Sequence record: SRR9188677_125
Strand: one strand, 5' to 3'
Length of the DNA: 20,000 bases
Position 1 is the stretch's first letter; every line of letters starts with the position of its first letter. Below the pieces are notes generated by a model. That model was not told the DNA's origin, made no database searches, and saw nothing but the letters and a program-made list of their open reading frames with translations. Positions 2,230 to 19,999 of this stretch are shown piece after piece. The translations under genes and the position numbers were made by a program.

Positions 2230-3330
2230 ATGGCAGTTTCAAAAAACACAATTTCTTGGGGAATCCGATATGTAATTTCATTTTTATTCCTGCTCTCGGC
2301 AGTAGCCAAGCTTTATCCTTCACCTTATTTTGCAATTTCAACTTTTGAGGTAAAACAGTTATATCCTATGGGTTTTTCAGAAGGATTTGCTCCCTATTTC
2401 TCCCGAATCCTTATCGGAATCGAATTCGCTTTAGGAATATTGATTCTGCAAAAGAACTTTTTGAGAAGCATTGTAATCCCAGCTACATTCCTGCTTTTGG
2501 CAGTATTCGTAGGACATTTGACTATCGAGACCATTTCCAACGGAGGAAATTCCGGAAACTGCGGCTGTTTTGGAAGTTTGTTGCCAATGACACCAATTGA
2601 AGCGATCCTTAAAAATGTAGTAGCGATGGCTTTATTGGGCTGGTTATACGTCATAATCCCAAAAACAGGAGAAAAGACTCATAACTTCTGGGTACTGAGC
2701 ACCGTAACATTAGGAGCCATTTTAGCGATGTTCATGATTGCGCCCATCCAACCTGTTGAGAGCAGTTTTAGCGTTTCAGGCCCCGAACAAACAGTCATTG
2801 ATTCAACAGAAACTGCCATCGACACTTCTAAAGTTGAAGCTGCTCCGGCATCGATCGCAAAAGACACTTTGAAAAAAACCGCTGAAGTAAAAGTTGACGC
2901 TGAAACCGAAGTTTTAGAACCTAAAAAACACAAATCGGGTTATACACAGTATTTTTCACACATCGATAAAGGAAGAAAGACGCTTTGTTTCTTCGTACCG
3001 GGTTGCGATCACTGCCGTGTTGCTGCCAAGGAGTTGACCGAATTAAAGAAAACCAACAAAAACTTCCCTGAGATTTCCATTATCTTCATGAATGAGGAAG
3101 CGGATTTGATACCGGCATTTTTTAAGGAAGCCGGTGCGGAATACCCGTACAAGATCATAGAAATCATTCCGTTCTGGAAGGTTTTGGGCGACGGCAAAGA
3201 CACTCCTGGAGTAAAATACTTATGGAATGGTAATGAATACAAGTACTATTTTGGTATCGGGGATAATAAATTCAACCCTGTTGATTATCAAAAACTGATT
3301 AACAAATCGTATCCTGAATTGAAGAAGTAA
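2230..3330 (+). CDS. DoxX/MauE-family membrane protein fused to a C-terminal thioredoxin-like domain (BT_3928-like)
   Basis: About 5 hydrophobic segments with SAVAK, IEFALG and NCGCFG motifs, an acidic low-complexity linker, then FFVPGCDHCR and TPGV. Confidence 0.8.
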   Translation: MAVSKNTISWGIRYVISFLFLLSAVAKLYPSPYFAISTFEVKQLYPMGFSEGFAPYFSRILIGIEFALGILILQKNFLRSIVIPATFLLLAVFVGHLTIETISNGGNSGNCGCFGSLLPMTPIEAILKNVVAMALLGWLYVIIPKTGEKTHNFWVLSTVTLGAILAMFMIAPIQPVESSFSVSGPEQTVIDSTETAIDTSKVEAAPASIAKDTLKKTAEVKVDAETEVLEPKKHKSGYTQYFSHIDKGRKTLCFFVPGCDHCRVAAKELTELKKTNKNFPEISIIFMNEEADLIPAFFKEAGAEYPYKIIEIIPFWKVLGDGKDTPGVKYLWNGNEYKYYFGIGDNKFNPVDYQKLINKSYPELKK

Positions 3331-3369
3331 ATCTAATTTAACTATATTTAAAACCTTAAATTTTAGATT

Positions 3370-3672
3370 ATGATTAAATATTTTATGTCCAGGAGCATGC
3401 TCGAAAGAGGGATAATCGGCATTATCTTCTGCATACTGCTTTTTGCTTTTGGGTATTTTTTCATCTTGAATTACGTTTCCACACTGGAAAGGCCGCCGCT
3501 GGGAAACACTTTATACATTTTATTGGGGAGCACCTTCAGTATAGTTTCCCTACTGGGGATAGTATTGATTATAAAATACCTATACGATTACAAGAAAAGA
3601 AAACTACGCAAGGAACGTAAAAGGAAAAAGCACAAATTGTTTTACTTGAAAAACATAAAAAAAAACAAGTAG
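3370..3672 (+). CDS. Small two-TM hypothetical membrane protein with a polybasic C-terminal tail
   Basis: 100 aa, two hydrophobic stretches, tail KKRKLRKERKRKKHK. Fills the gap between co-oriented genes. Start could be the 2nd or 3rd Met. Confidence 0.6.
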   Translation: MIKYFMSRSMLERGIIGIIFCILLFAFGYFFILNYVSTLERPPLGNTLYILLGSTFSIVSLLGIVLIIKYLYDYKKRKLRKERKRKKHKLFYLKNIKKNK

Positions 3673-3720
3673 AGACAACAAAAAAGACTAAAGCCGTTTC
3701 ACACAACACACAATTCCATT

Positions 3721-4215
3721 ATGAAAAAGATACTATTTTGCATTATTGCCACAACCACTTTAGCCTGCAGCAATGCCCAAGACAAGCAGTTCGCGAAAGA
3801 AAGCCTGGCCAAAAAACTAATAACTCCTCAAAATACTGAAATAGCATTCAAGGATATCCTAAAAAAACACAGCGGCAAGATTACGGTTATAGAAGTCTGG
3901 GCTTCCTGGTGCGGCGATTGTGTAAAGGCAATGCCTAAAGTAAAGCAAATGCAGGCAGACTTTCCGGATGTGGATTACGTATTCCTTTCCATGGACAAAG
4001 CTTTTGACAAATGGGAAAATGGGATAAAGCACCACGAACTCAAAGGCGACCACTATTGGGCAACCGACGGAATGAAAGGCGAATTCGGAAAATCGATTGA
4101 TTTGGACTGGATCCCGAGATATATAGTGCTAGACAAAGCCGGAAAAGTGGTACTCTACAGAGCCATAGAAACCGATTTTGAAAAAATTTACGACCAAATA
4201 AAAAAACTACAATAA
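3721..4215 (+). CDS. TlpA/ResA-family thiol-disulfide oxidoreductase, exported
   Basis: N-terminal signal (possible lipoprotein Cys in TLAC), VWASWCGDC active site, WIPRY cis-Pro loop. Stop overlaps the tpiA start by 1 nt (TAATG). Confidence 0.9.
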   Translation: MKKILFCIIATTTLACSNAQDKQFAKESLAKKLITPQNTEIAFKDILKKHSGKITVIEVWASWCGDCVKAMPKVKQMQADFPDVDYVFLSMDKAFDKWENGIKHHELKGDHYWATDGMKGEFGKSIDLDWIPRYIVLDKAGKVVLYRAIETDFEKIYDQIKKLQ

Positions 4216-8220: not shown

Positions 8221-8619
8221 ATGAAAACAAAATGCTGCATGCTGCTATTTATTTTATGCTTTACCGGCTTATCATTCGGGCAAAATCAGGATCAGATGAA
8301 CCAAAAGGCTTATGATGAGTATAAAAAAGTAGATAAAGAGCTTAATTCGGTCTACGGAAAAATACTTAAGCAATACAAATCGGATACTGAGTTTATCAGA
8401 AACCTCAAGAAATCACAAAAAATCTGGATCACTTTTCGCGATGCTGAAATGCGGGTGAAATACCCCAATCGCGGTTCCGGAACTTATGCTTCCTCCCACC
8501 AGATGTGCTGGTACGGTTACATAGCCGGGCTCACCAAAAAAAGAACCAAAGAGCTCAATGTATGGTTAACCGGAATTGAAGAAGGCGACGTCTGCGCAGG
8601 TTCGGTAAAAAAGAAATAG
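8221..8619 (+). CDS. LprI/DUF1311-family exported protein (lysozyme-inhibitor-like)
   Basis: Signal peptide SFG|Q, plus Q..MN..A......DKELNSVY, LKKSQKIWITFRDAE and MC......T..RTKEL patterns. Confidence 0.85.
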   Translation: MKTKCCMLLFILCFTGLSFGQNQDQMNQKAYDEYKKVDKELNSVYGKILKQYKSDTEFIRNLKKSQKIWITFRDAEMRVKYPNRGSGTYASSHQMCWYGYIAGLTKKRTKELNVWLTGIEEGDVCAGSVKKK

Positions 8620-8626
8620 GCCCACA

Positions 8627-9805
8627 TCAATACTCAAACTTCCCAAACTCGCTTTCTATAGTGAGTTTTTTGCTTTCAGAAGCTTCTACCCTGCCTACAA
8701 TCTGGGCATCAACCCCGAAAGATTTTGAGATTTCGATGATGTCGTTGGCAATTTCTGAAGGAACGTACAATTCCATTCTATGGCCACAATTGAACACCTG
8801 GTACATTTCCTTCCAATCCGTTTTGGATTGCGCCTGAATGAGTTTGAACAAAGGTGGAACCGGAAATAAAGTATCTTTTATTACGTGCACATTCTCTACA
8901 AAATGCAACACTTTAGTTTGAGCACCACCCGAACAATGTACCATTCCGTGAATTTCATTTGGAGTATATTTTCCTAAAATCGATTTAATTATCGGAGCGT
9001 AAGTACGCGTTGGGGACAAAACCAATTTTCCGGCGTCGATTGGGGAATCTTCAACTGCATCGGTCAAATTCGTATTTCCGGAATAGACCAAATCTTTTGG
9101 TACAGAACTGTCGAAACTTTCCGGATATTTTTCGGCTAAGTAGTGGGCAAAAACATCATGACGTGCCGATGTCAGTCCGTTGCTTCCCATTCCGCCGTTG
9201 TAGCTTTTCTCATATCTGGCCTGACCGAAAGAAGCCAAACCGACAATCACATCGCCAGCTTTGATATTGGCATTGTCAACCACATCACTGCGCTTTATAC
9301 GGGCAGTTACGGTAGAATCCACAATGATTGTACGAACCAAATCGCCTACATCGGCTGTTTCTCCGCCAGTTGAATGTATGGTTACGCCAAATGATTTCAG
9401 TTCTTCAATAAGTTCTTCAGTGCCATTGATTATGGCAGAAAGCACTTCGCCCGGGATCAGGTTTTTGTTCCTTCCGATTGTTGACGAAAGCATGATATTG
9501 TCTGTAGCGCCAACACAAAGCAAGTCGTCAATATTCATAATCAACGCATCCTGTGCAATCCCTTTCCAAACCGAAAGATCGCCGGTTTCTTTCCAGTACA
9601 TATAGGCCAGGGAAGATTTTGTACCGGCACCGTCTGCGTGCATTATCAGGCAATAATCCTCATCATTAGTCAAATAATCGGGAACTATTTTGCAGAACGC
9701 TTTTGGGAATAATCCTTTATCGATGTTTTTAATAGCATTGTGAACATCTTCTTTGGAAGCCGAAACCCCACGAAGATTGTAACGTTGACTGTTATCAGAG
9801 CTCAT
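8627..9805 (-). CDS. purM: AIR synthase (phosphoribosylformylglycinamidine cyclo-ligase), Bacteroidota type
   Basis: RGVSASKEDVH, HADGAGTKS, MNIDDLLCVGA, GGETADVGD, GSNGLTSARHD, HCSGG and EMYQVFNCG motifs. Confidence 0.93.
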   Translation of the reverse strand: MSSDNSQRYNLRGVSASKEDVHNAIKNIDKGLFPKAFCKIVPDYLTNDEDYCLIMHADGAGTKSSLAYMYWKETGDLSVWKGIAQDALIMNIDDLLCVGATDNIMLSSTIGRNKNLIPGEVLSAIINGTEELIEELKSFGVTIHSTGGETADVGDLVRTIIVDSTVTARIKRSDVVDNANIKAGDVIVGLASFGQARYEKSYNGGMGSNGLTSARHDVFAHYLAEKYPESFDSSVPKDLVYSGNTNLTDAVEDSPIDAGKLVLSPTRTYAPIIKSILGKYTPNEIHGMVHCSGGAQTKVLHFVENVHVIKDTLFPVPPLFKLIQAQSKTDWKEMYQVFNCGHRMELYVPSEIANDIIEISKSFGVDAQIVGRVEASESKKLTIESEFGKFEY

Positions 9806-9841: not shown

Positions 9842-9873
9842 AATGTGTCAATTAGGCAATTTGAAAATTTGAT
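9842..9873. repeat. Degenerate 8-bp tandem repeat, 4 units
   Basis: AATGTGTC|AATTAGGC|AATTTGAA|AATTTGAT. Confidence 0.45.
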
Positions 9874-10640
9874 TATTTCTCCACAATCAGGATTTCTACG
9901 CGTCGGTTTTCATTTTCCTGCTGCTCGTCCTTTTCGGGAATCGGATGCAGGGGTTTTGTAGTTCCAAAACCTTTGAAGGACATGCGTTTCTTATCGATTT
10001 TATTCCGGATCAGATAATTATAGATTGCCCTTGCCCGCGAGGTGGATAAATTCAAAAGGTCCGAAGGCTGGCAACAGATATGGCCTTGAATCTGGATCTT
10101 AAGCTTTGGGTTTTCTTCCATCGCGCAGCGTAAGTCATAAAGCGTTGGTTCGGATTTCGGAACGATGCGGGCGGAATTATTGAAGAAATAAATGTCCGGC
10201 AAAGTAATGTGCTCGCCAACCTTGGATTCTTTTATCTTCTTAGTCAATTCCATTTCGATTGGTACGGCAACCGGTTCATTATAAAAGATAGTCACCTTTC
10301 GGTTCTCTGCCTGGACTTTGGATTGCTTGAAATCTTTACCGTAAGCTGTTTTTTCTAAATATTTGGAGAACTTCAGTCCGCTTTTCTCTAACAGAAGCTG
10401 AACATTTTCAATACGCCTTTCCGATAGTTTTATGTTGTAATTTTTGGTGTCGATGCTGTCGCAGTAACCTAAAAGCTTGGTAATTTCGGCATCTTTGTTT
10501 TTGGAAATCCATTCGTTGAGCACCAAAACGGAAGGCGGGTTTGGAAAATCCTTATTAAAATCGAAAAACGCCTCAATTTGTTTCTGCCCCAACGATTTGA
10601 TAGAGACCAGGAGAAACAATATGATTATTTTCCCTTTCAT
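9873..10640 (-). CDS. OmpA-family periplasmic protein with two OmpA-C-like domains (copy 3 in transcription order)
   Basis: Signal SLG|Q. N-domain FFDFNKD..GYCDSID..LSERR..ENRKV. C-domain IYFFNNS..QGHICC..LSTSRARAIYNYL..GFG..ENRRVEILIV. Confidence 0.9.
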   Translation of the reverse strand: MKGKIIILFLLVSIKSLGQKQIEAFFDFNKDFPNPPSVLVLNEWISKNKDAEITKLLGYCDSIDTKNYNIKLSERRIENVQLLLEKSGLKFSKYLEKTAYGKDFKQSKVQAENRKVTIFYNEPVAVPIEMELTKKIKESKVGEHITLPDIYFFNNSARIVPKSEPTLYDLRCAMEENPKLKIQIQGHICCQPSDLLNLSTSRARAIYNYLIRNKIDKKRMSFKGFGTTKPLHPIPEKDEQQENENRRVEILIVEK

Positions 10641-11632
10641 TTTTTTTGCACAATCAGGATTTCTACTCTGCGGTTGGCCATGCGCTGCTTTTCATTTTTT
10701 TCCGGTACTTTATAGATCGGATTGTTGCTCCCAAAGCCTTTAAAATCCAATCGGTTAACCTCAACCCCATGACCTGTTAAATATTTAAGGATAACCAATG
10801 CCCGGCGATAGGAAAGCTTGGTGTCGTTTGGATTTGGGTTACAGCAGATGTGCCCGTGTATCGCAATCCTCAAACCCGGATTATCCAGCATCACCTGAAG
10901 CAGTTCATTCAAAAGCGGTACCGACTGATCCATCACTTTTTCGGAATTAAAATGAAAAATGATATTGCTTATCCTAATCAGGTCACCTACTTTGGCTTTT
11001 TCAAACTTCAAGGCCAAACCGGCTTTCTCTTCAGCAATCATAGCGTCCATGTCTATCGGCTCAAATACTTCTTCTTCAATCTGTCCGGTTACTTTTTCTG
11101 CTTCCGTCTGTTTTCCCGGAGTTTTTCCGAACAGAGTCTGCGGCTTGTTTACCGGCTTAGGGTTTGGTTTGGATTCCGTTAAAGCTACTTTGCCTGCATT
11201 CGGATTTACAGCGGTTTTTGTTTCTTTATCCGATTCCTTTTTTATATCCATTGGGAGGGAATAAAACACTTCCACTTTCCTGTTCTCGCTCTGGATTTTG
11301 GAATACTTAAAATCTTCCCCAAAAGATTTCAGCTCCACCTTATCCGCTATTTTGATGTGCTCTTTTTTAAAAATTTCCAGCATAGAATGGATCCTGCGCA
11401 TGGCCAGCTGCTTGTTGTAATCATTGGAATCGACACTATCGCAATAACCCAAGACCTTGGTGATTTCTGCCGTTTTGTTTTCGGCTATCCATTGATTTAT
11501 TTTAGCTTGTGAAGCTTCATTGGCTATGTCCTGATTGAAGTCAAAAAAAACCTCGAATTTATTTTGGCTAAAACAGTTTAGTGACAACAACACAACGAAA
11601 ACTAAAAATTGTGGCTTCATCTTAATTTTCAA
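10637..11632 (-). CDS. OmpA-family periplasmic protein with two OmpA-C-like domains and a long Pro/Lys/Glu linker (copy 2)
   Basis: Signal CFS|Q. GYCDSVD..LAMRR..ENRKV, then HGHICC..LSYRRA..ANRRVEILIV. Start could be 11620. Confidence 0.9.
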   Translation of the reverse strand: MKIKMKPQFLVFVVLLSLNCFSQNKFEVFFDFNQDIANEASQAKINQWIAENKTAEITKVLGYCDSVDSNDYNKQLAMRRIHSMLEIFKKEHIKIADKVELKSFGEDFKYSKIQSENRKVEVFYSLPMDIKKESDKETKTAVNPNAGKVALTESKPNPKPVNKPQTLFGKTPGKQTEAEKVTGQIEEEVFEPIDMDAMIAEEKAGLALKFEKAKVGDLIRISNIIFHFNSEKVMDQSVPLLNELLQVMLDNPGLRIAIHGHICCNPNPNDTKLSYRRALVILKYLTGHGVEVNRLDFKGFGSNNPIYKVPEKNEKQRMANRRVEILIVQKK

Positions 11633-12506
11633 CGATTAGGATTTCAACTCTTCGATTGGCGGCGCGCTCTTTTTCATCTTTTTCCGGTATCGGATAAATG
11701 GGTGCCGTGCTTCCAAAACCTTTATAGGATAGCCTCGCTTTGGAAATATCCCTCGAAACCAGAAAATTATAGATGGCTTTTGCCCTTTGCGTAGACAAAT
11801 CAGTCCGGTCAACCGGCATACAGCATAAGTGCCCGTGGATTTCTATTTTTAAATTGGGGTTACTCTGAAGCACCAAAAGCAGCTCAAACAATTTTCCGCG
11901 CGATTCATTGACTACGGCAAAGGTATTGATGATGAAATTGAGGTTTTCGATTTTAAGTTTTTCCCCGGCTTTGGCATGTTCAATCTGTTTCATGAAATTC
12001 CGGTCGAGCTTGAATTCCGAGGTAGTCCCGTTGGGGTTTTCGAATATCAATTTCTCTGGATATTCGACTTCTTTTTTAGGTTCTACCGCAGCTGGTTCTT
12101 TTTTGATCCCGAGGATCTCATTTTCGCGCGGAATGTCCTTTTCCAAAATATAATAGAGGGTAACCCTTCTATTTTCAGCCTTATTTTTAGACTGCTCAAA
12201 GGTTTCGCCAAAACTGATCGTCTTGAAATCGTCTCTGGTTTTGATTTGTGTTTTTACTAGGTTATAAATGAAATTAACCCTTTTTTGCGCTAGCGTATCG
12301 TTGAAACTATTCGTTCCGTCTTCGTCGGTAAACCCGTGAATCGCTACTATTTTATTGTTTCTGTTTTCAGAAATCCAGGCATTCAGCTTGGCATTCTCTT
12401 TCGGGATCAGCTCGAATTTATTGCTGTCAAAATAGACTGTAAATTTTTGCTGGGCATGGGCCAGTAGCGAAAAGAAAGCGAAAAGAAAAACAAAATAGGA
12501 TTTCAT
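11622..12506 (-). CDS. OmpA-family periplasmic protein with two OmpA-C-like domains (copy 1)
   Basis: Start re-called at ATG 12506 (MKSYFVFLFAFFSLLAHA|Q signal peptide). HGFTDEDG..LAQKR..ENRRV, then HGHLCC..LSTQRA..ANRRVEILIV. Confidence 0.9.
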   Translation of the reverse strand: MKSYFVFLFAFFSLLAHAQQKFTVYFDSNKFELIPKENAKLNAWISENRNNKIVAIHGFTDEDGTNSFNDTLAQKRVNFIYNLVKTQIKTRDDFKTISFGETFEQSKNKAENRRVTLYYILEKDIPRENEILGIKKEPAAVEPKKEVEYPEKLIFENPNGTTSEFKLDRNFMKQIEHAKAGEKLKIENLNFIINTFAVVNESRGKLFELLLVLQSNPNLKIEIHGHLCCMPVDRTDLSTQRAKAIYNFLVSRDISKARLSYKGFGSTAPIYPIPEKDEKERAANRRVEILIVEN

Positions 12507-12625: not shown

Positions 12626-12643
12626 GCACCTAAAAATTTAACC

Positions 12644-13087
12644 ATGAAACAATTATTACTAGTTCCTTTACTGGCTGTTGGCTTATCAGCTAATTCCCAG
12701 TCAGTGATACAATCTGTAAATTCAGGAAGCATAATTGGCGCAGGCGGTTCTGTTTCAGTTGGCGAGATTGTGGTTGTTGCGCAAAACCAATCGAGTTCCA
12801 GCTCGGGGATTATCGGGATTTTGGTGCAAACGCTGGAAGTTCCACAACTAGAACTTAGCGCAAAAATTACCGTTTTCCCTAACCCAGCCACAGCCACAGT
12901 TTATTTTCAGACGGATGTTAATCTGGCAGATGAAAAAATTGCTGTTTTCAATTTGTCAGGGCAATTAGTCTCCGAAAAAAAGATCGCGGCTGACCATTCT
13001 TTGGATCTGTCCGAACTGTCTAACGGAATTTACATGATTCAATTCTCAAACAAAAAAATCAATTCATTTAAAATCATCAAACACTAA
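12644..13087 (+). CDS. Small T9SS type-A sorting-domain protein (signal peptide + ~45 aa + CTD)
   Basis: Start re-called at 12644 (MKQLLLVPLLAVGLSANS|Q). CTD ITVFPNPA..VFNLSGQLV..LDLSELSNGIYMIQF..FKIIKH. Confidence 0.88.
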   Translation: MKQLLLVPLLAVGLSANSQSVIQSVNSGSIIGAGGSVSVGEIVVVAQNQSSSSSGIIGILVQTLEVPQLELSAKITVFPNPATATVYFQTDVNLADEKIAVFNLSGQLVSEKKIAADHSLDLSELSNGIYMIQFSNKKINSFKIIKH

Positions 13088-13088
13088 T

Positions 13089-14195
13089 ATGAAAAAATTA
13101 TTACTCGTAGCGGCACTTTTTATTTCATTACTGACTTTTGCGCAGGTTCCACAAGGAATTTCCTATCAGGCAATCGCGCTGAACAGTTCCGGGACTCCTG
13201 TTGTGAGTTCCAACGTTAGGCTGAAACTTTCCATTCTGGATGCTACAGCAACCGGGAGCATATTGTATTCTGAAACCCAATTGAAAACCACCAATGCCAA
13301 CGGATTATTCAACCTGGTAATCGGACAGGGAACAGTGGTTTCCGGGGTATTCAATACCATCAACTGGGGAACTAACTTAAAATTCCTAAAAGTAGAAATG
13401 GATGCAGCCGGCGGAACAAACTACACCTTGGTTGGAACTACGCAATTATTGGCTGTACCTTACGCATTGGCAGCGGACACTTTAATCACATCTGCCGGAG
13501 AAGGAATCACATTGGTTTCTCCAAACGGAACTTCATACCAACTTACCGTAAACAACAGCGGGCAATTGTCTTTGCCAACTTCCGGGGTAACCGGAACTAC
13601 ACCAAACCAAATCTACGCTTATGGAACATTTAATAGTTTCAATGCGGCAACTTCACTATTGTTCGCCAATAGCCCTAGCGCTTCTGCATTTTACGGATAC
13701 AAATATTTAACGGCAGGCGGACAAGTTAAATTTCTGGCAGAAAATAACTCGAGCGCTGCGGTTTATGGACTAAACGGATCATACGATGTAGTAATCGGGG
13801 GAAGTGCCTATGTTGTTCCGGCTAACGGATTTTACTTTTTGAAAATCACTCATTATGACCAGAACCCATTAAATCTTGATGCAAGCACATTTTCTCCTCA
13901 GTTGGAAGTTTGGTCAAGTAACGGAGGAACAAGTGTTGTCAACCCTACTTACAATGCTACCACAAACACGCTTTCTTTTGTTGTTAACGGAGTGACCAAT
14001 GCAAATAATTTCATATTCAATCTTCCTTATCCATCAGGGAATCCGCAACACGGCGACTCTTTATCAGACGGTACAATTGATGCTGGTGGCCCTTCAATCA
14101 ATTTCCCGGGTGCTACTGCAACCCCAAAAAACTACAGGGTTGATTTGGTTTTGAATTTCAACGGATCAGGAACTTACACCATCACACAGATATAA
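13089..14195 (+). CDS. Exported protein: conserved Bacteroidota N-terminal 'PQGISYQA..VPYAL' domain, SPNG connector and SusE/SusF-like beta-sandwich C-terminus; no T9SS CTD
   Basis: Signal TFA|Q. QVPQGISYQAIA..YSETQ..TNANGLFNLVIGQG..INWG..FLKVEMD..QLLAVPYALAA, then LVSPNGTSYQLTVNNSGQL, then IYAYGTFNSFN / VKFLAEN..VYG / YVVPANGFYFLKI. Confidence 0.85.
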   Translation: MKKLLLVAALFISLLTFAQVPQGISYQAIALNSSGTPVVSSNVRLKLSILDATATGSILYSETQLKTTNANGLFNLVIGQGTVVSGVFNTINWGTNLKFLKVEMDAAGGTNYTLVGTTQLLAVPYALAADTLITSAGEGITLVSPNGTSYQLTVNNSGQLSLPTSGVTGTTPNQIYAYGTFNSFNAATSLLFANSPSASAFYGYKYLTAGGQVKFLAENNSSAAVYGLNGSYDVVIGGSAYVVPANGFYFLKITHYDQNPLNLDASTFSPQLEVWSSNGGTSVVNPTYNATTNTLSFVVNGVTNANNFIFNLPYPSGNPQHGDSLSDGTIDAGGPSINFPGATATPKNYRVDLVLNFNGSGTYTITQI

Positions 14196-14207
14196 TTAAA
14201 AATACCG

Positions 14208-14238
14208 AAAAAAAGCCGCTCAATGAGCGGCTTTTTTT
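14208..14238. terminator. Intrinsic terminator, bidirectional form
   Basis: A7-GCCGCTCA-A-TGAGCGGC-T7. Confidence 0.9.
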
Positions 14239-14289
14239 GCATATAATCTATTTTAACAGTTTAATCTGGGAAATTATTTTTTTAAAAAA

Positions 14290-14297
14290 TATATTTG
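14290..14297 (+). promoter_or_regulatory. -7 promoter box
   Basis: TATATTTG 23 nt upstream of ATG 14321. Confidence 0.6.
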
Positions 14298-14320
14298 TTT
14301 CTATAACTAAACAAAATATT

Positions 14321-15208
14321 ATGAAGCAAAAATTACTTTACCTATTTATTTTATGCAATTATGCGGCTGTAGCGCAGATAACCATTGGTAGCGGAACGGC
14401 AGTAGATTCCAATGCCGGATTGTCTTCACCCATATCAAACTGGTACAACTATTCGCTTTCACAGACCATTTATTTGGCTTCTGAAATCAATGCCAGCGGA
14501 ACCATTACTTCATTGCAGTTCCCGCAAAACAATGCCACTGCGATTCCAAAATCTGATGACCTGATAAGCGTATGGATCGGCCACACAACAAAAACGCAAT
14601 TTAGCTCAACGGTTGGTACAAACGGAGCCGATATCGTTGACATTTCGACCATGACCAAGGTTATGGACAATGGGTCATTGGTAAAAACAGGGACTACGAC
14701 AACTTACACTTTAACTACTCCTTTTGTATACAACGGGACAGACAACCTGATTGTGGTCGTTAACGCAGCAGAATTTGGCAATGACGGAAATTCCACTTTA
14801 TACCTTCAAAGTCCAACAGCAGCTCCAAGGTCCATGATGATAAGAAGCGATGCGGCTGTATTTGATGCTTCCAATCCTACTAAAAATTTTACTGGGACTC
14901 TTACTGCAGATTCATGGCAGCAAAAATCAGTTCGCCCGATTGTTACCATTAATGGGCTTACAGCTTTAAGCACATCATCATTTCATTTGGAAAACAAGTT
15001 CCGTTTATATCCAAATCCTGCAACTGATACTGTAAACCTGGGTAAAACTTATGCTGCAATTGAAGTATATGACCTTCTTGGAAAGTTAGTTGCAAGCGAT
15101 AAGAATTCGGATAAAATTGCAGTATCTTCCTTTGTAAAAGGAATGTACATTGTTAAAGCAACCGATGAAAACGGTGCTTCTGAATCAGCAAAGCTGGTCA
15201 AAAATTAA
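14321..15208 (+). CDS. T9SS type-A sorting-domain protein with a single beta-rich passenger domain
   Basis: Start re-called at 14321 (MKQKLLYLFILCNYAAVA|Q). Passenger YNYSLSQTIYLASEI..TTPFVYNGTDNLIV. CTD FRLYPNPATD..VYDLLGKLV..KGMYIVK..KLVKN. Confidence 0.9.
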   Translation: MKQKLLYLFILCNYAAVAQITIGSGTAVDSNAGLSSPISNWYNYSLSQTIYLASEINASGTITSLQFPQNNATAIPKSDDLISVWIGHTTKTQFSSTVGTNGADIVDISTMTKVMDNGSLVKTGTTTTYTLTTPFVYNGTDNLIVVVNAAEFGNDGNSTLYLQSPTAAPRSMMIRSDAAVFDASNPTKNFTGTLTADSWQQKSVRPIVTINGLTALSTSSFHLENKFRLYPNPATDTVNLGKTYAAIEVYDLLGKLVASDKNSDKIAVSSFVKGMYIVKATDENGASESAKLVKN

Positions 15209-15274: not shown

Positions 15275-17464
15275 TTATCTTGTAAACAATAATTCCCTGT
15301 ATTTGGTCAATGTCCAGATTTCGTCATCCACCAATAATTCTAATTTATCGCAGTGAACCCTGATTTGGTCAAAGTAGGGTTTTACCTTATCGCAGTAGGA
15401 TTCAGCCATTTTTTGGGCATCGGTTAAAGCGTTTGCTTGTTTACGGGCTTCAGTCATCGCTTCTACTTTTGAATTGATCCCTTCAATATGAGCCGAAATT
15501 TCCTTGATTAGGACGATTTGCTCTTTAGCGATTTTCTCGAAGTCTTTTCCGAAGATCTCTTTCAATCCGCGGACATTTTCAATCAGGGTGTTTTGGTAAC
15601 GGATTGCCGTTGGTATTACGTGGTTGCGGGCAATATCGCCTAGGACCCTTCCTTCAATCTGGATTTTTTTTGTGTACTCTTCCAATTCGATTTCGTAACG
15701 CGCTTCCACCTCAACGTGGTTCATTACGTTCAACTCGCTGAATAAGTCCAACGCTTTTTTAGAAACTTTAGCCTTCAAAGCCAATGGGGTGGTTTTATGA
15801 TTGCTCAAGCCGCGTTTTTTAGCTTCTTTTTCCCAGGCTTCGCTGTAACCGTCTCCTTCAAAAAGGATGTTTTTGGTTTCTTTTATGTATTCTCTCAACA
15901 CGTTGAAAATCGCTTCGTCTTTCTTTAAATCTTTAGTTTCGATCAAAGCATCAACTTCTTTTTTGAAATCCCTTAATTGCTTGGCGACAATAGAGTTGAG
16001 GGTCGTCATGGCATTGGCACAGTTTGCGGAAGATCCCACAGCCCGGAATTCAAATTTGTTCCCGGTAAATGCAAACGGAGAAGTTCTGTTTCTGTCGGTA
16101 TTATCCAGCATTACGTCCGGAATTTTCCCCACTACGTTCAACTTCAGATCGGTTTTCTCTTCCGGAGATAATTTTCCTTTGGAAACCCCTTCCAATTCAG
16201 CCAAAACTTTGGTCAGCTGCTCTCCGATAAATACCGAAATGATTGCCGGTGGTGCTTCGTTGGCTCCTAATCGGTGGTCGTTGCTTGCCGTTGCAATGGC
16301 TGCCCTTAACAATTCTTCATACTCCTGAACGGCCTTAATCGTATTGATAAAGAAAGACAAAAACTGGAGATTGCTCATCGGCGTTTTGCTTGGAGACAAT
16401 AAGTTCACTCCGGTATCGGTTGCCAGTGACCAGTTGTTGTGTTTTCCTGATCCGTTTACTCCCTGAAAAGGTTTTTCGTGGAATAACACTTTGAAATCAT
16501 GGCGCTCCCCTACTTTAGACATTACGTCCATCAAAAGGGAATTGTGATCCACCGCTAAATTCGTTTCTTCAAAAATCGGAGCCAGCTCAAACTGATTTGG
16601 AGCTACCTCGTTGTGGCGTGTTTTTACCGGAATCCCCAAAAGCATACACTCTTCTTCCAATTCCCTCATATAGTTTAAGGCACGCGACGGAATCGATCCG
16701 AAATAATGGTCATCCAATTGCTGTCCTTTTGCAGAAGTGTGCCCAAGAAGGGTTCTTCCCGTCATTATCAAATCCGGGCGGGAATTGGCTAAAGAAGAAT
16801 CAACCAGGAAATATTCCTGCTCCCATCCTAAAGTTGCCGTTACTTTCTTAACATTTTTGTCGAAATATTTACAAACATCAGTTGCGGCTTCATCAACCGC
16901 ATTCAATGCTCTCAATAATGGCGTTTTATAATCTAAGGCTTCACCAGTGTAAGAGATGAAAACCGTTGGAATGCATAAAGTGGTCCCGAAAATAAATGCC
17001 GGCGAAGTTGGATCCCAGGCAGTATATCCGCGGGCTTCGAATGTATTCCTGATCCCTCCGTTGGGGAAAGACGAAGCATCCGGTTCCTGCTGAACCAATT
17101 GCCCGCCGCCGAATTTCTCAACGGCATCCGAACCATCATAAGAAGTTTCAAAGAACGCATCGTGTTTCTCAGCGGTTGTTCCTGTTAAGGGCTGAAACCA
17201 GTGTGTGTAATGTGTCACGCCTTTTGACAATGCCCATTCCTTCATTCCCATTGCGATATAATCGGCTAGCTTCCTGTCAATTTTTGTTCCGTGCTGGACT
17301 GCATCTTTCACGCCTTTGTGAGCATCTGAAGTCAAGAATTGCTTCATTGCTTTGTCATTAAACACATTCGAACCAAAAAGATCTGATTTTCTTCCTGCTT
17401 CTTCAAATTTTACAGGTTTTCTACCTGATGCATCTTTTAATGCTTGGAAACGTAAAGTTGACAT
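15275..17464 (-). CDS. glnA: Glutamine synthetase type III
   Basis: 729 aa with THYTHWFQPLTG.TAEKHD, EPDASSFPNGG, GWEQEYF, HNEVAPNQFE, HEKPF.GVNGSGKHNNWS and DRNRTSPFAFTGNKFEFRA motifs. Confidence 0.97.
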   Translation of the reverse strand: MSTLRFQALKDASGRKPVKFEEAGRKSDLFGSNVFNDKAMKQFLTSDAHKGVKDAVQHGTKIDRKLADYIAMGMKEWALSKGVTHYTHWFQPLTGTTAEKHDAFFETSYDGSDAVEKFGGGQLVQQEPDASSFPNGGIRNTFEARGYTAWDPTSPAFIFGTTLCIPTVFISYTGEALDYKTPLLRALNAVDEAATDVCKYFDKNVKKVTATLGWEQEYFLVDSSLANSRPDLIMTGRTLLGHTSAKGQQLDDHYFGSIPSRALNYMRELEEECMLLGIPVKTRHNEVAPNQFELAPIFEETNLAVDHNSLLMDVMSKVGERHDFKVLFHEKPFQGVNGSGKHNNWSLATDTGVNLLSPSKTPMSNLQFLSFFINTIKAVQEYEELLRAAIATASNDHRLGANEAPPAIISVFIGEQLTKVLAELEGVSKGKLSPEEKTDLKLNVVGKIPDVMLDNTDRNRTSPFAFTGNKFEFRAVGSSANCANAMTTLNSIVAKQLRDFKKEVDALIETKDLKKDEAIFNVLREYIKETKNILFEGDGYSEAWEKEAKKRGLSNHKTTPLALKAKVSKKALDLFSELNVMNHVEVEARYEIELEEYTKKIQIEGRVLGDIARNHVIPTAIRYQNTLIENVRGLKEIFGKDFEKIAKEQIVLIKEISAHIEGINSKVEAMTEARKQANALTDAQKMAESYCDKVKPYFDQIRVHCDKLELLVDDEIWTLTKYRELLFTR

Positions 17465-19090: not shown

Positions 19091-19999
19091 TTATCTTTTG
19101 ATTACTCTTAGCGTTTTCACTACTTCACCTTGAGTTACAATTACATTGTAAACTCCTGACGCGTAACGATCCCCTATTTGCAATCCTGCTGATATTTCAT
19201 TCATATCTGCCTGACGTTGCTCGATTAATTTTCCAGCCATATCGTAGATAGCTACCGATACTTTTTCCTGTGCAGAAGATGAAACATCTAAATTAAAGGT
19301 TTCAGTAAACGGATTAGGATAAGCTTTCACTGCTAATGCAACATCCATTGGTTGTGCTGTTACAGTGGCATCATTTCCTTTAGTTACAATATCTCTACAA
19401 ACGTTTCCGTTTCTAGTGATTGTAAACGTAGCTGTTACAGTGTCCGAGTTACAGTTTCCTGAGATGCTGTAAGTAACTCTTACAGTTCCTCCGTTGCTCC
19501 AGCTTGGAGCACATCTGTTATCTCCACTAAATACTGCACATGCTCCACATCCTGAACGGATAGTTCTGAACTGGCATAACCAGCTGTTGAAAGCATTGTT
19601 TACCCCAGCCTGGCTAGTGAAACTAGTGTTAGCATAAGTCACGTTAGACGGACCTGCTACTTCAACTTCACCACCAGATTGAACTGTAAATCTTCTGGTA
19701 ACTGTATAAGTACTTGTATTTGAAGTTTGACCGTTACAAGTGATGGTTTGACCACAAGTATTGTTTGATCTGTAAGTCCAAGTAACATCTACATATCCGC
19801 CACATGCTGATGGTGCAACTGTTGGCGCATTGTGTGTCAATGTACCTGTGCTGCATCCTCCACTTACTGTAGTTGACGCTAGGAATGAATTCCATGCTGA
19901 GTTAACCTGCGCTTGTGTTTTGCAAGATTGGATAGTTACGTTGCTTGCAGCATTGATAGTTACTGCCGCTGGAGCAGCTACTGTAAATCTTCTGGTAAC
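19091..19999 (-). CDS. C-terminal part of a large T9SS-secreted Cys-rich repeat protein (HYR/Ig-like repeats + type-A CTD), truncated by window end
   Basis: Frame stays open beyond 19840 to the window edge (VTRRFTVAAPAAVTINAASNVTIQSCKTQAQVNSAWNSFLASTTVSGGCSTGTL...). Repeats are ~99 aa. CTD VKAYPNPF..IYDMAGKLIE..ASGVYNVIVTQG..LRVIKR. Confidence 0.92.
   Translation of the reverse strand, partial: VTRRFTVAAPAAVTINAASNVTIQSCKTQAQVNSAWNSFLASTTVSGGCSTGTLTHNAPTVAPSACGGYVDVTWTYRSNNTCGQTITCNGQTSNTSTYTVTRRFTVQSGGEVEVAGPSNVTYANTSFTSQAGVNNAFNSWLCQFRTIRSGCGACAVFSGDNRCAPSWSNGGTVRVTYSISGNCNSDTVTATFTITRNGNVCRDIVTKGNDATVTAQPMDVALAVKAYPNPFTETFNLDVSSSAQEKVSVAIYDMAGKLIEQRQADMNEISAGLQIGDRYASGVYNVIVTQGEVVKTLRVIKR

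Follow-up and report, generated by a model that had tools for sequence, protein, structure and literature searches.

The window (the whole 20,000-nucleotide stretch of sequence record SRR9188677_125) carries on its minus strand an array of three genes, here called A, B and C, whose products each consist of a signal peptide and two OmpA-like domains. In bacteria the usual non-covalent connection of the envelope to the cell wall is made by OmpA-like domains, and the pocket of Asp, Asn and Arg with which they grip the meso-diaminopimelate (DAP) of the stem peptide of peptidoglycan counts as the chemistry that defines them. In A, B and C the first domain (N-domain) has the residues of this pocket, and in the second (C-domain) a pair of adjacent cysteines stands where the Asp should be. 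These proteins belong to a monophyletic branch that has exchanged the key Asp for an invariant Cys pair, alongside an intact canonical domain in the same chain. We tentatively read the pair as a vicinal disulfide that lines a rebuilt pocket for a ligand other than the DAP amine, in a protein that would act as a two-handed cell-wall tether, and we give this combined picture slightly less than an even chance of being right.

The window is assigned to Flavobacterium by the relatives of gene C, the best 120 of 2,996 of which share 70-95% identity with it and, where named, are called 'OmpA family protein [Flavobacterium ...]'. A, B and C are head-to-tail open reading frames with pairwise identities of 40-41%, and the features of the array are as follows.

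11622..12506, minus strand: gene A, 294 amino acids (aa), ATG at 12506 and TAA at 11622-11624; first in the array, A-type
12453..12506, minus strand: signal peptide of A, residues 1-18 (...LLAHA, then QQ), signal peptidase I type with Gln at +1; Q19 invariant in orthologues
12144..12452, minus strand: N-domain of A, canonical OmpA-like (GFTD; D61, N69, R76), from Pfam, alignment and model
11979..12143, minus strand: spacer of A, residues 122-176, 55 aa, conserved; predicted helix, beta-hairpin and helix
11625..11978, minus strand: C-domain of A, Cys-Cys type OmpA-like, from Pfam, alignment and domain tree
11820..11825, minus strand: codons of Cys228-Cys229 of A, within GHLCC at 11820-11834
10637..11620, minus strand: gene B, 327 aa from ATG at 11620 (331 aa if from TTG at 11632); middle gene, B-type
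11255..11566, minus strand: N-domain of B, canonical OmpA-like (GYCD), from Pfam and alignment
11000..11254, minus strand: spacer of B, 85 aa, disordered and rich in Lys, Pro and Glu, from alignment
10640..10999, minus strand: C-domain of B, Cys-Cys type OmpA-like, from Pfam and domain tree
10841..10846, minus strand: Cys-Cys codons of B, within GHICC at 10841-10855
9873..10640, minus strand: gene C, 255 aa; last in the array, C-type, with a 15-aa spacer
10275..10586, minus strand: N-domain of C, canonical OmpA-like (GYCD; D61, N69, R76), from alignment and model
9876..10229, minus strand: C-domain of C, Cys-Cys type OmpA-like, from model and structure match
10071..10076, minus strand: codons of Cys189-Cys190 of C, within GHICC at 10071-10085
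11618..11624, minus strand: A/B junction (TAA, one nucleotide, ATG)
10637..10640, minus strand: B/C junction (ATGA, stop and start overlapping by 4 nucleotides, nt)

The cysteine pair in place of the ligand-binding aspartate

OmpA-like domains hold the DAP of the stem peptide by Asp, Asn and Arg side chains (PMC7192894, PMC5104382), which are Asp576, Asn584 and Arg591 in the crystal of PorE (PMC7192894), and the peptidoglycan-binding motif reads TD(x)7NxxLSxxRA (PMC5104382); papers are cited here by PMC number, each for its excerpted text. Residues were counted in 135 two-domain relatives that are approximately 29-57% identical to gene C. The N-domain triad is nearly constant in this set (D61 in 131/135, N69 in 133/135 and R76 in 134/135), has the spacing found in PorE and matches the peptidoglycan-binding motif. 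The initial annotation of the window, made before any database search, had noted that the N-domains keep their Asp in GFTD, GYCD and GYCD and had proposed that they grip peptidoglycan; the motifs are as described, and the full triad at PorE spacing makes such binding probable. The Thr position of the motif is Cys in 71, Thr in 38, Ala in 23 and Ser in 3 of the relatives, and it is here that the third Cys of the B- and C-types sits. Among C-type proteins (n=29) the additional conserved cysteines are C60 (10461-10463, in GYCD), which is invariant, and C172 (10125-10127, in the first helix of the C-domain), which is kept in at least 90%. The residue after the N-domain Asp is often Ser (56/135) or Thr (13/135) and is then followed by an aliphatic residue, as in Asp61-Ser62-Ile63 of gene C (10452-10460), a pattern which we take to resemble the O-glycosylation motif of Bacteroidetes.

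In the C-domain, Ile, Leu or Val occupies the Thr place, the first Cys occupies the Asp place and the second Cys comes next. The motifs GHLCC (A) and GHICC (B and C) lie exactly where they were first reported, but the register given then, with Cys-Cys in place of Thr-Asp, was off by one, and the pair replaces the Asp and the residue that follows it. The Asp place is Cys in 135/135 relatives and the Arg (R202) is kept in 134/135, no residue is conserved at the Asn place (N 38, D 30, K 24), and the loop after the pair is two residues shorter than in canonical domains and 7 aa longer in other subtypes. Also retained are the strand-1 Phe (F152, invariant) and the LSxxRA helix. The C-domain departs from the peptidoglycan-binder motif at two of the three triad positions and, by its sequence, should not be classed as a canonical peptidoglycan binder; with the change of Asp to Cys and the variable Asn, next to an Arg that is kept, it would be unable to bind DAP in the canonical way.

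Only five alignment columns are invariant across the 135 two-domain relatives, and two of them are the Cys pair. A profile search of 1.84 billion cluster representatives returned 632 matches at E<=1e-30, and the best 150 were inspected; 143 of these 150 carry the pair (GHICC 116, GHVCC 11, GHMCC 7, GHLCC 4 and others 7, as tallied), and of the seven that do not, five are long and contain several canonical GHTD domains and two are fragments in which the C-domain is missing. The pair is retained where the preceding Gly or His is lost (SHICC, GNICC). A distant query gave 432 relatives, of which the few that are named are Chitinophagaceae, Segetibacter and Aridibaculum, with Ferruginibacter also met, and in this Chitinophagaceae-named branch the pair is present in 120/120 among the matches listed. 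The loop after the pair measures 7-8 aa in the array type and 15-17 aa in both the Chitinophagaceae-named branch and a sister type (D-type, below). The mature protein has no Cys besides the pair in 53/135 two-domain relatives and in 76/120 of the Chitinophagaceae-named branch, and 64/135 relatives have an odd count of three Cys. Conservation in homologues, without which the initial reading would have fallen, is thus observed in these sets, including 31/31 D-type proteins.

A domain tree was built from 62 Cys-Cys domains, together with 7 N-domains and, drawn from the same genomes, 16 canonical domains. All 62 Cys-Cys domains form one clade (support 0.94) with no canonical domain inside it, and on this tree the Cys-Cys substitution therefore arose once and has been held since.

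Four of 20 fetched lower-scoring OmpA matches in Flavobacterium genomes, taken to be canonical, carry GH[VI]CC; these are the D-type, and they rule out that Cys-Cys domains are confined to the array. D-type proteins have two domains and approximately 270 aa, with a canonical N-domain and a C-domain in which GH[VI]CCT is followed by a basic loop of 16-17 residues; they are 30% identical to gene C and basal in the domain tree. In three of four genomes the D-type gene starts 1-2 nt after the gene of a 545-aa S41 C-terminal processing protease (Ctp) with a PDZ domain. A full-length D-type relative is found in 80/201 genomes of an even Flavobacteriaceae sample and lies directly downstream of the S41 protease in 30/30 loci fetched from that sample. 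The five closest relatives of the window organism have it directly behind the protease as well (5/5), so the window organism very probably also has a D-type gene, outside the window. Overall the D-type directly follows the S41 protease in 38/39 loci (L091:4612-7064, L092:4613-7076, L094:2783-5234, L096-L129).

Two OmpA-like domains in each exported protein

Pfam OmpA (PF00691) matched two stretches in each of A, B and C, with E-values of 9.9e-21, 2.9e-17 and 2.9e-21 and scores of 74.4, 63.2 and 76.1 bits, respectively, against a cut-off of 27.2. An AlphaFold model of gene C, for which 135 diverse relatives were aligned, has a predicted local distance difference test score (pLDDT) of 94.6 and consists of two alpha/beta domains (residues 20-121 and 131-254) with a short linker between them. 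The N-domain (model residues 17-122) matches the OmpA-like structure 9uu2 (Z 13.8, root-mean-square deviation 2.5, 104 aligned), the C-domain (model residues 136-253) matches 5wtp_C, the OmpA of Capnocytophaga (Z 16.0, root-mean-square deviation 2.5, 116 aligned), and Foldseek matches the model to OmpA-like domains at E 5.9e-9 and weaker. Both halves belong to the OmpA-like domain family by profile and fold. Each gene had at first been described as a signal peptide, an OmpA-like domain, a variable linker and a second OmpA-like domain, without a beta-barrel, and a PF00691 search of each domain had been proposed; that search and the gene C model agree with this description, the N-terminal half being a second OmpA-like alpha/beta domain and not a barrel.

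A, B and C are neither Pal, OmpA porin, MotB nor YiaD. No NCBIfam model reaches its curated cut-off for any of the three; the best match is the YiaD family NF053611, with 91.9-102.6 bits against 175, and Pal (TIGR02802 / PRK10802) scores 64.6-70.9 bits against 125.35, with the lipobox absent. The N-terminal eight-stranded beta-barrel of the OmpA porins is absent. The first domain is preceded only by a cleavable signal peptide, without the membrane helix and plug of MotB and PomB, and the NCBIfam MotB models score far below their cut-offs.

The linker is variable in length (55, 85 and 15 aa in A, B and C, respectively), as first noted, but in A it is partly structured and strongly conserved, with many positions invariant across the 29 A-type orthologues of gene A (66-81% identity). 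A model of gene A, in which the spacer structure is to be read as a hint only (overall pLDDT 75, 29-row alignment), places helices at 122-132 and 169-176 and strands at 152-156 and 162-166, with a pLDDT of 58-85 there. The A spacer may form a small third module or serve as a binding site. Among 158 candidates no fused longer form of the Cys-Cys domain was found at E<=1e-10, which is weak evidence, and two three-domain variants, P0205 (404 aa) and P0210 (425 aa), have two Cys-Cys domains, each with GHVCC, behind a single canonical N-domain.

The three proteins would be cleaved by signal peptidase I. Gln stands directly after the predicted cleavage site in A, B and C and at most 8 residues ahead of strand 1 in 115/124 relatives, and the signal peptide contains a Cys in 31/124 relatives, none of them in a lipobox context. 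The position of this Gln fits the Bacteroidetes Q-rule, in which Gln follows the signal peptidase I site (PMC5837995, PMC10653852), and marks the array family as probable signal peptidase I substrates. Export without a lipid anchor or barrel, also part of the initial description, agrees with the Gln at +1 in all three genes, with the relatives and with the gene C model. Because a lipid anchor, a barrel and the tail of a type IX secretion system (T9SS) substrate are all absent, A, B and C most likely stay in the periplasm.

Readings of the cysteine pair

We propose that the N-domain is an ordinary OmpA-like module that would grip the DAP of the stem peptide via Asp, Asn and Arg, and that the C-domain has the same fold with a rebuilt pocket, in which the Asp has given way to the Cys pair, the Asn has been lost, the loop has changed in length and the carboxylate-binding Arg has been kept. 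In the oxidising periplasm the two Cys would most likely join as a vicinal disulfide lining this pocket. In that case the C-domain would cease to recognise the free amine of DAP and would bind a different ligand of the envelope, one with a carboxylate beside a flat or non-polar face, e.g. a modified stem peptide or one of the sugar rings in the glycan strand. This proposal draws on the placement of the pair at the ligand-binding Asp, the retained Arg, the members without any other Cys and the formation of disulfides in the Flavobacterium periplasm (PMC12635249). In the many members where the pair is the sole Cys of the mature protein, its residues can pair only with each other within the chain. 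Vicinal disulfides bind ligands (usually a bare ring face), stabilise or switch (PMC12102755). By analogy, the proposed loss of DAP binding has a precedent in Treponema Tp0624, in which the Asp is Ala, the Arg is kept and DAP is not bound (PMC5104382).

The pair, as a disulfide or as buried thiols, could instead be structural only, stabilising the turn after strand 2 in a C-domain that either binds peptidoglycan via the Arg and backbone or is inert. Disulfides are often among the best conserved residues of exported proteins, the C-domain keeps its Arg, F152 and LSxxRA helix, and Escherichia coli OmpA and RmpM carry stabilising disulfides elsewhere in the domain (PMC7192894). However, the residues displaced by the pair are precisely the ligand-binding Asp and the one next to it, the Asn of the C-domain is lost as well, loss of that Asp abolishes DAP binding in Tp0624 (PMC5104382), and vicinal disulfides are strained, rare and kept mostly at functional sites (PMC12102755). 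We regard a purely structural role as unlikely.

With a DAP-gripping N-domain and a disulfide-lined pocket in the C-domain, each protein would be a two-handed tether or adaptor at the cell wall, and the three paralogues would offer different reaches through their 55-aa structured, 85-aa disordered and 15-aa spacers. Prc and CtpA, S41 proteases of other Gram-negative bacteria, rely on an adaptor lipoprotein in degrading cell-wall hydrolases, and a wall-bound partner would suit a task of this kind. Substrates of Prc are described in PMC7481392. The position of the sister D-type behind a C-terminal processing protease suggests that the family has a part in cell-wall remodelling, e.g. as wall-bound adaptors.

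Several points weigh against this picture. The geometry and exposure of the two Cys were deduced from alignment to solved domains. The difference in the loop after the pair between subtypes (7-8 against 15-17 aa) fits a common, finely tuned ligand pocket poorly and would be easier to reconcile with a role of the Cys pair as such. In the C-type, the invariant C60 and the widely kept C172 permit other pairings. The array of the window is not beside a protease and the relatives outside Flavobacterium are without conserved neighbours, so the adaptor idea rests on the sister paralogue.

The adjacent Cys may also be a strained donor disulfide that is attacked by a lone Cys of a partner and so links a wall-bound protein to an envelope partner, a covalent capture of which the mechanism has been shown in the same genus for a Cys-x-Cys motif, where linkage is efficient only with both Cys (PMC12635249). 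In the array family, too, the two Cys are invariant, their invariance despite very different loops suits a role in the pair itself, the members with an odd count of three Cys (64/135) would be in keeping with it, and in the S41 protease, which shares an operon with the D-type, a conserved Cys (14/15) stands where a solved Ctp has Thr. This residue is Cys343 of the protease at L091:5430-7064 (PSGRCIQ motif), and the solved structure is 9jr1. Against capture, the motif lies inside a folded domain and not in a free tail, and the third Cys of the B- and C-types is at the Thr position that varies among Cys, Thr, Ala and Ser, which is the pattern of a small buried residue. A test for co-evolution with the protease was also negative: its Cys is present in 36/39 readable orthologues (Ser in 3) from 40 genomes without a D-type (L131-L170), none of which has a Cys-Cys gene downstream of the protease, and the one Ser-bearing protease in the D-type set is still paired with a Cys-Cys partner. 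We consider covalent capture improbable, about as much so as a structural role.

Two specific linkages were rejected. A disulfide between the Cys-Cys pair and protease Cys343 has no phyletic support, the Cys being kept equally without a D-type, and a chain polymer, in which the N-domain Cys of B or C would attack the Cys-Cys of the next protein, is at odds with the variation of that N-domain position (C 71, T 38, A 23, S 3) and with the Thr often found there in A- and D-types. A predicted complex of the S41 protease and the D-type scored 0.00 against a mark of 0.32, a value that is evidence neither for nor against binding.

More doubtful again is the fuller form of the capture idea, in which the Cys-Cys is a pre-loaded donor disulfide in the former DAP pocket that couples the cell wall covalently but reversibly to Cys-bearing envelope proteins. 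If true, it would extend the SprF/PorG-GldK principle from the gliding track to peptidoglycan and would provide a disulfide-based wall tether for Bacteroidota, possibly stationing the neighbouring Ctp protease or its substrates. To our knowledge, no Braun-type lipoprotein is known in Bacteroidota.

The initial annotation had raised, besides a covalent link, a switchable His-x-Cys-Cys module, in which the His and both Cys bind a metal or the pair cycles between thiol and disulfide to toggle binding. The His is present in 132/135 relatives, vicinal disulfides can switch conformation (PMC12102755), and MauE/DoxX-like and thioredoxin-like proteins, whose link to the array would be conjectural, are encoded 6-8 kb off in the window. 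The metal idea is nevertheless weakened: the Gly-His is inherited from GHTD, which makes its conservation uninformative on metal, a few members have Asn or Tyr for the His and yet keep the Cys pair, and a fourth ligand is not conserved. Next to the array, no gene for a redox partner is conserved in the 51 sources of the array survey (the window and 50 loci) or at four distant loci. A metal or redox switch seems to us the least probable of these explanations, and very unlikely.

Genomic setting and known systems

The array occupies a slot between the genes of a type III glutamine synthetase and a purM-like protein, into which genes with T9SS tails are variably inserted upstream of the array.

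8627..9805, minus strand: purM-like AIR synthase (Pfam), downstream of the array and present there in 44/51 loci
15275..17464, minus strand: type III glutamine synthetase (Pfam), upstream boundary of the slot, present in 41/51 loci

The array holds one gene in 5 sources, two in 14, three in 27 and four in 5, and 52/83 array junctions fall between a 4-nt overlap and a 2-nt gap. The genes of the window had been called overlapping, which holds for B and C (ATGA) and for A and B only with a B start at TTG 11632; the ATG at 11620 leaves a 1-nt spacer. A tree of 134 proteins contains three old orthologous groups in the fixed order A-type (approximately 295 aa, GHLCC, Thr in the N-domain motif), B-type (272-327 aa) and C-type (255-257 aa), and a second Flavobacterium subgroup has an A-like gene last. 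These old groups and their fixed order are compatible with the hetero-oligomer that had been suggested for the three proteins, but its obligatory form is weakened by the single-copy arrays (5/51) and by lone genes outside Flavobacterium. A scan for sigma-70 promoters, made without Bacteroidota promoters, gave 9 sites against 6.9 in shuffled sequence and a terminator scan 5 against 4.4, neither of which is an excess. Identical fragments of A and B were found in one sequencing run that is guessed to be RNA.

An array-type Cys-Cys domain is present in 186/301 sampled Flavobacterium species genomes. In a phylum sample of 401 evenly drawn genomes, 9 have a match at E<=1e-28, of which 8 are two-domain proteins with the pair and 1 is a canonical domain. 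In four distant genomes it occurs as a single gene surrounded by housekeeping genes of unrelated kinds, with no conserved neighbours among the 22 genes scanned. A sequence labelled as a metagenome bin of Agitococcus (Gammaproteobacteria) matches residues 178-293 of gene A at 51% identity (L051:5001-5351), which could be bin contamination or gene transfer.

Elsewhere in the window, positions 12641-15208 and 19091-19840 encode several proteins with T9SS C-terminal sorting domains and one family-less protein of 368 aa; relatives of these genes occur in only 1-11 of the 51 loci and form a variable insert between the array and the glutamine synthetase. A MauE/DoxX-like membrane protein (366 aa), a family-less 100-aa open reading frame and a thioredoxin-like protein (164 aa) are adjacent at 2230-4215, at a distance of 6-8 kb from the array, and might together make up a periplasmic thiol-redox module. 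A small exported protein with a lysozyme-inhibitor LprI domain (8221-8619) adjoins purM on the opposite strand.

The database name for the array-type, D-type and Chitinophagaceae-named proteins alike is 'OmpA family protein'. In the literature covered, most subscription journals being outside its scope, neither adjacent Cys in an OmpA-like domain nor a Ctp-OmpA pair in Bacteroidota was found described. Judged by its members and its tree, the Cys-Cys branch of the OmpA-like family is undescribed, widespread, large and old. A vicinal disulfide in the ligand pocket would be a new recognition chemistry for a wall-binding fold, a donor disulfide would be a new kind of wall tether, and the D-type/Ctp pairing is a candidate for an adaptor of a Ctp protease in Bacteroidota.

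Canonical PF00691 domains, such as those of PorE (6TOP), Acinetobacter baumannii OmpA (3TD5) and Capnocytophaga gingivalis OmpA (5WTP), have the same fold as the domains of the array and share the triad and spacing of the N-domains, whereas in the array C-domains Cys-Cys stands at the Asp, the Asn is not conserved and the loop differs in length. The array proteins also differ from canonical PF00691 proteins in having no barrel, lipid anchor or membrane helix and in carrying two domains on one soluble chain. Known pairs of S41 proteases and adaptors are NlpI-Prc of E. coli and LbcA-CtpA of Pseudomonas, in which the adaptors are tetratricopeptide repeat lipoproteins. They resemble the D-type only, and not the array, in the genetic coupling of a PDZ-containing S41 protease to a partner in the envelope, and they differ in that the D-type partner is, by its domains, a two-domain OmpA protein of wall-binding type. 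Pgm6 and Pgm7 of Porphyromonas gingivalis have beta-barrels, which the array proteins lack. Like A, B and C they are encoded by adjacent paralogous OmpA-family genes in Bacteroidota, and they are reported as a heterotrimer (PMC5300881) and said to form disulfide-linked oligomers (PMC12635249). Unlike the array proteins they are outer-membrane proteins (PMC5300881).

Domain 3 of Tp0624 from Treponema pallidum is a diverged OmpA-like domain, which has, like the array C-domains, lost the Asp and kept the Arg (PMC5104382), but it has Ala and not Cys-Cys, belongs to another architecture and phylum, and has no second canonical domain in its chain. SprF/PorG of Flavobacterium johnsoniae share with the array two neighbouring conserved periplasmic Cys in the same genus; their Cys-x-Cys tails link to Cys343 of GldK, and a strained intramolecular disulfide has been proposed for them (PMC12635249). 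In SprF/PorG the Cys-x-Cys is in the free C-terminal tail of outer-membrane barrels, whereas the Cys-Cys of the array is in a folded pocket and is known from sequence. Tp0624 and SprF/PorG are the nearest parallels to the array, and neither is the same thing.

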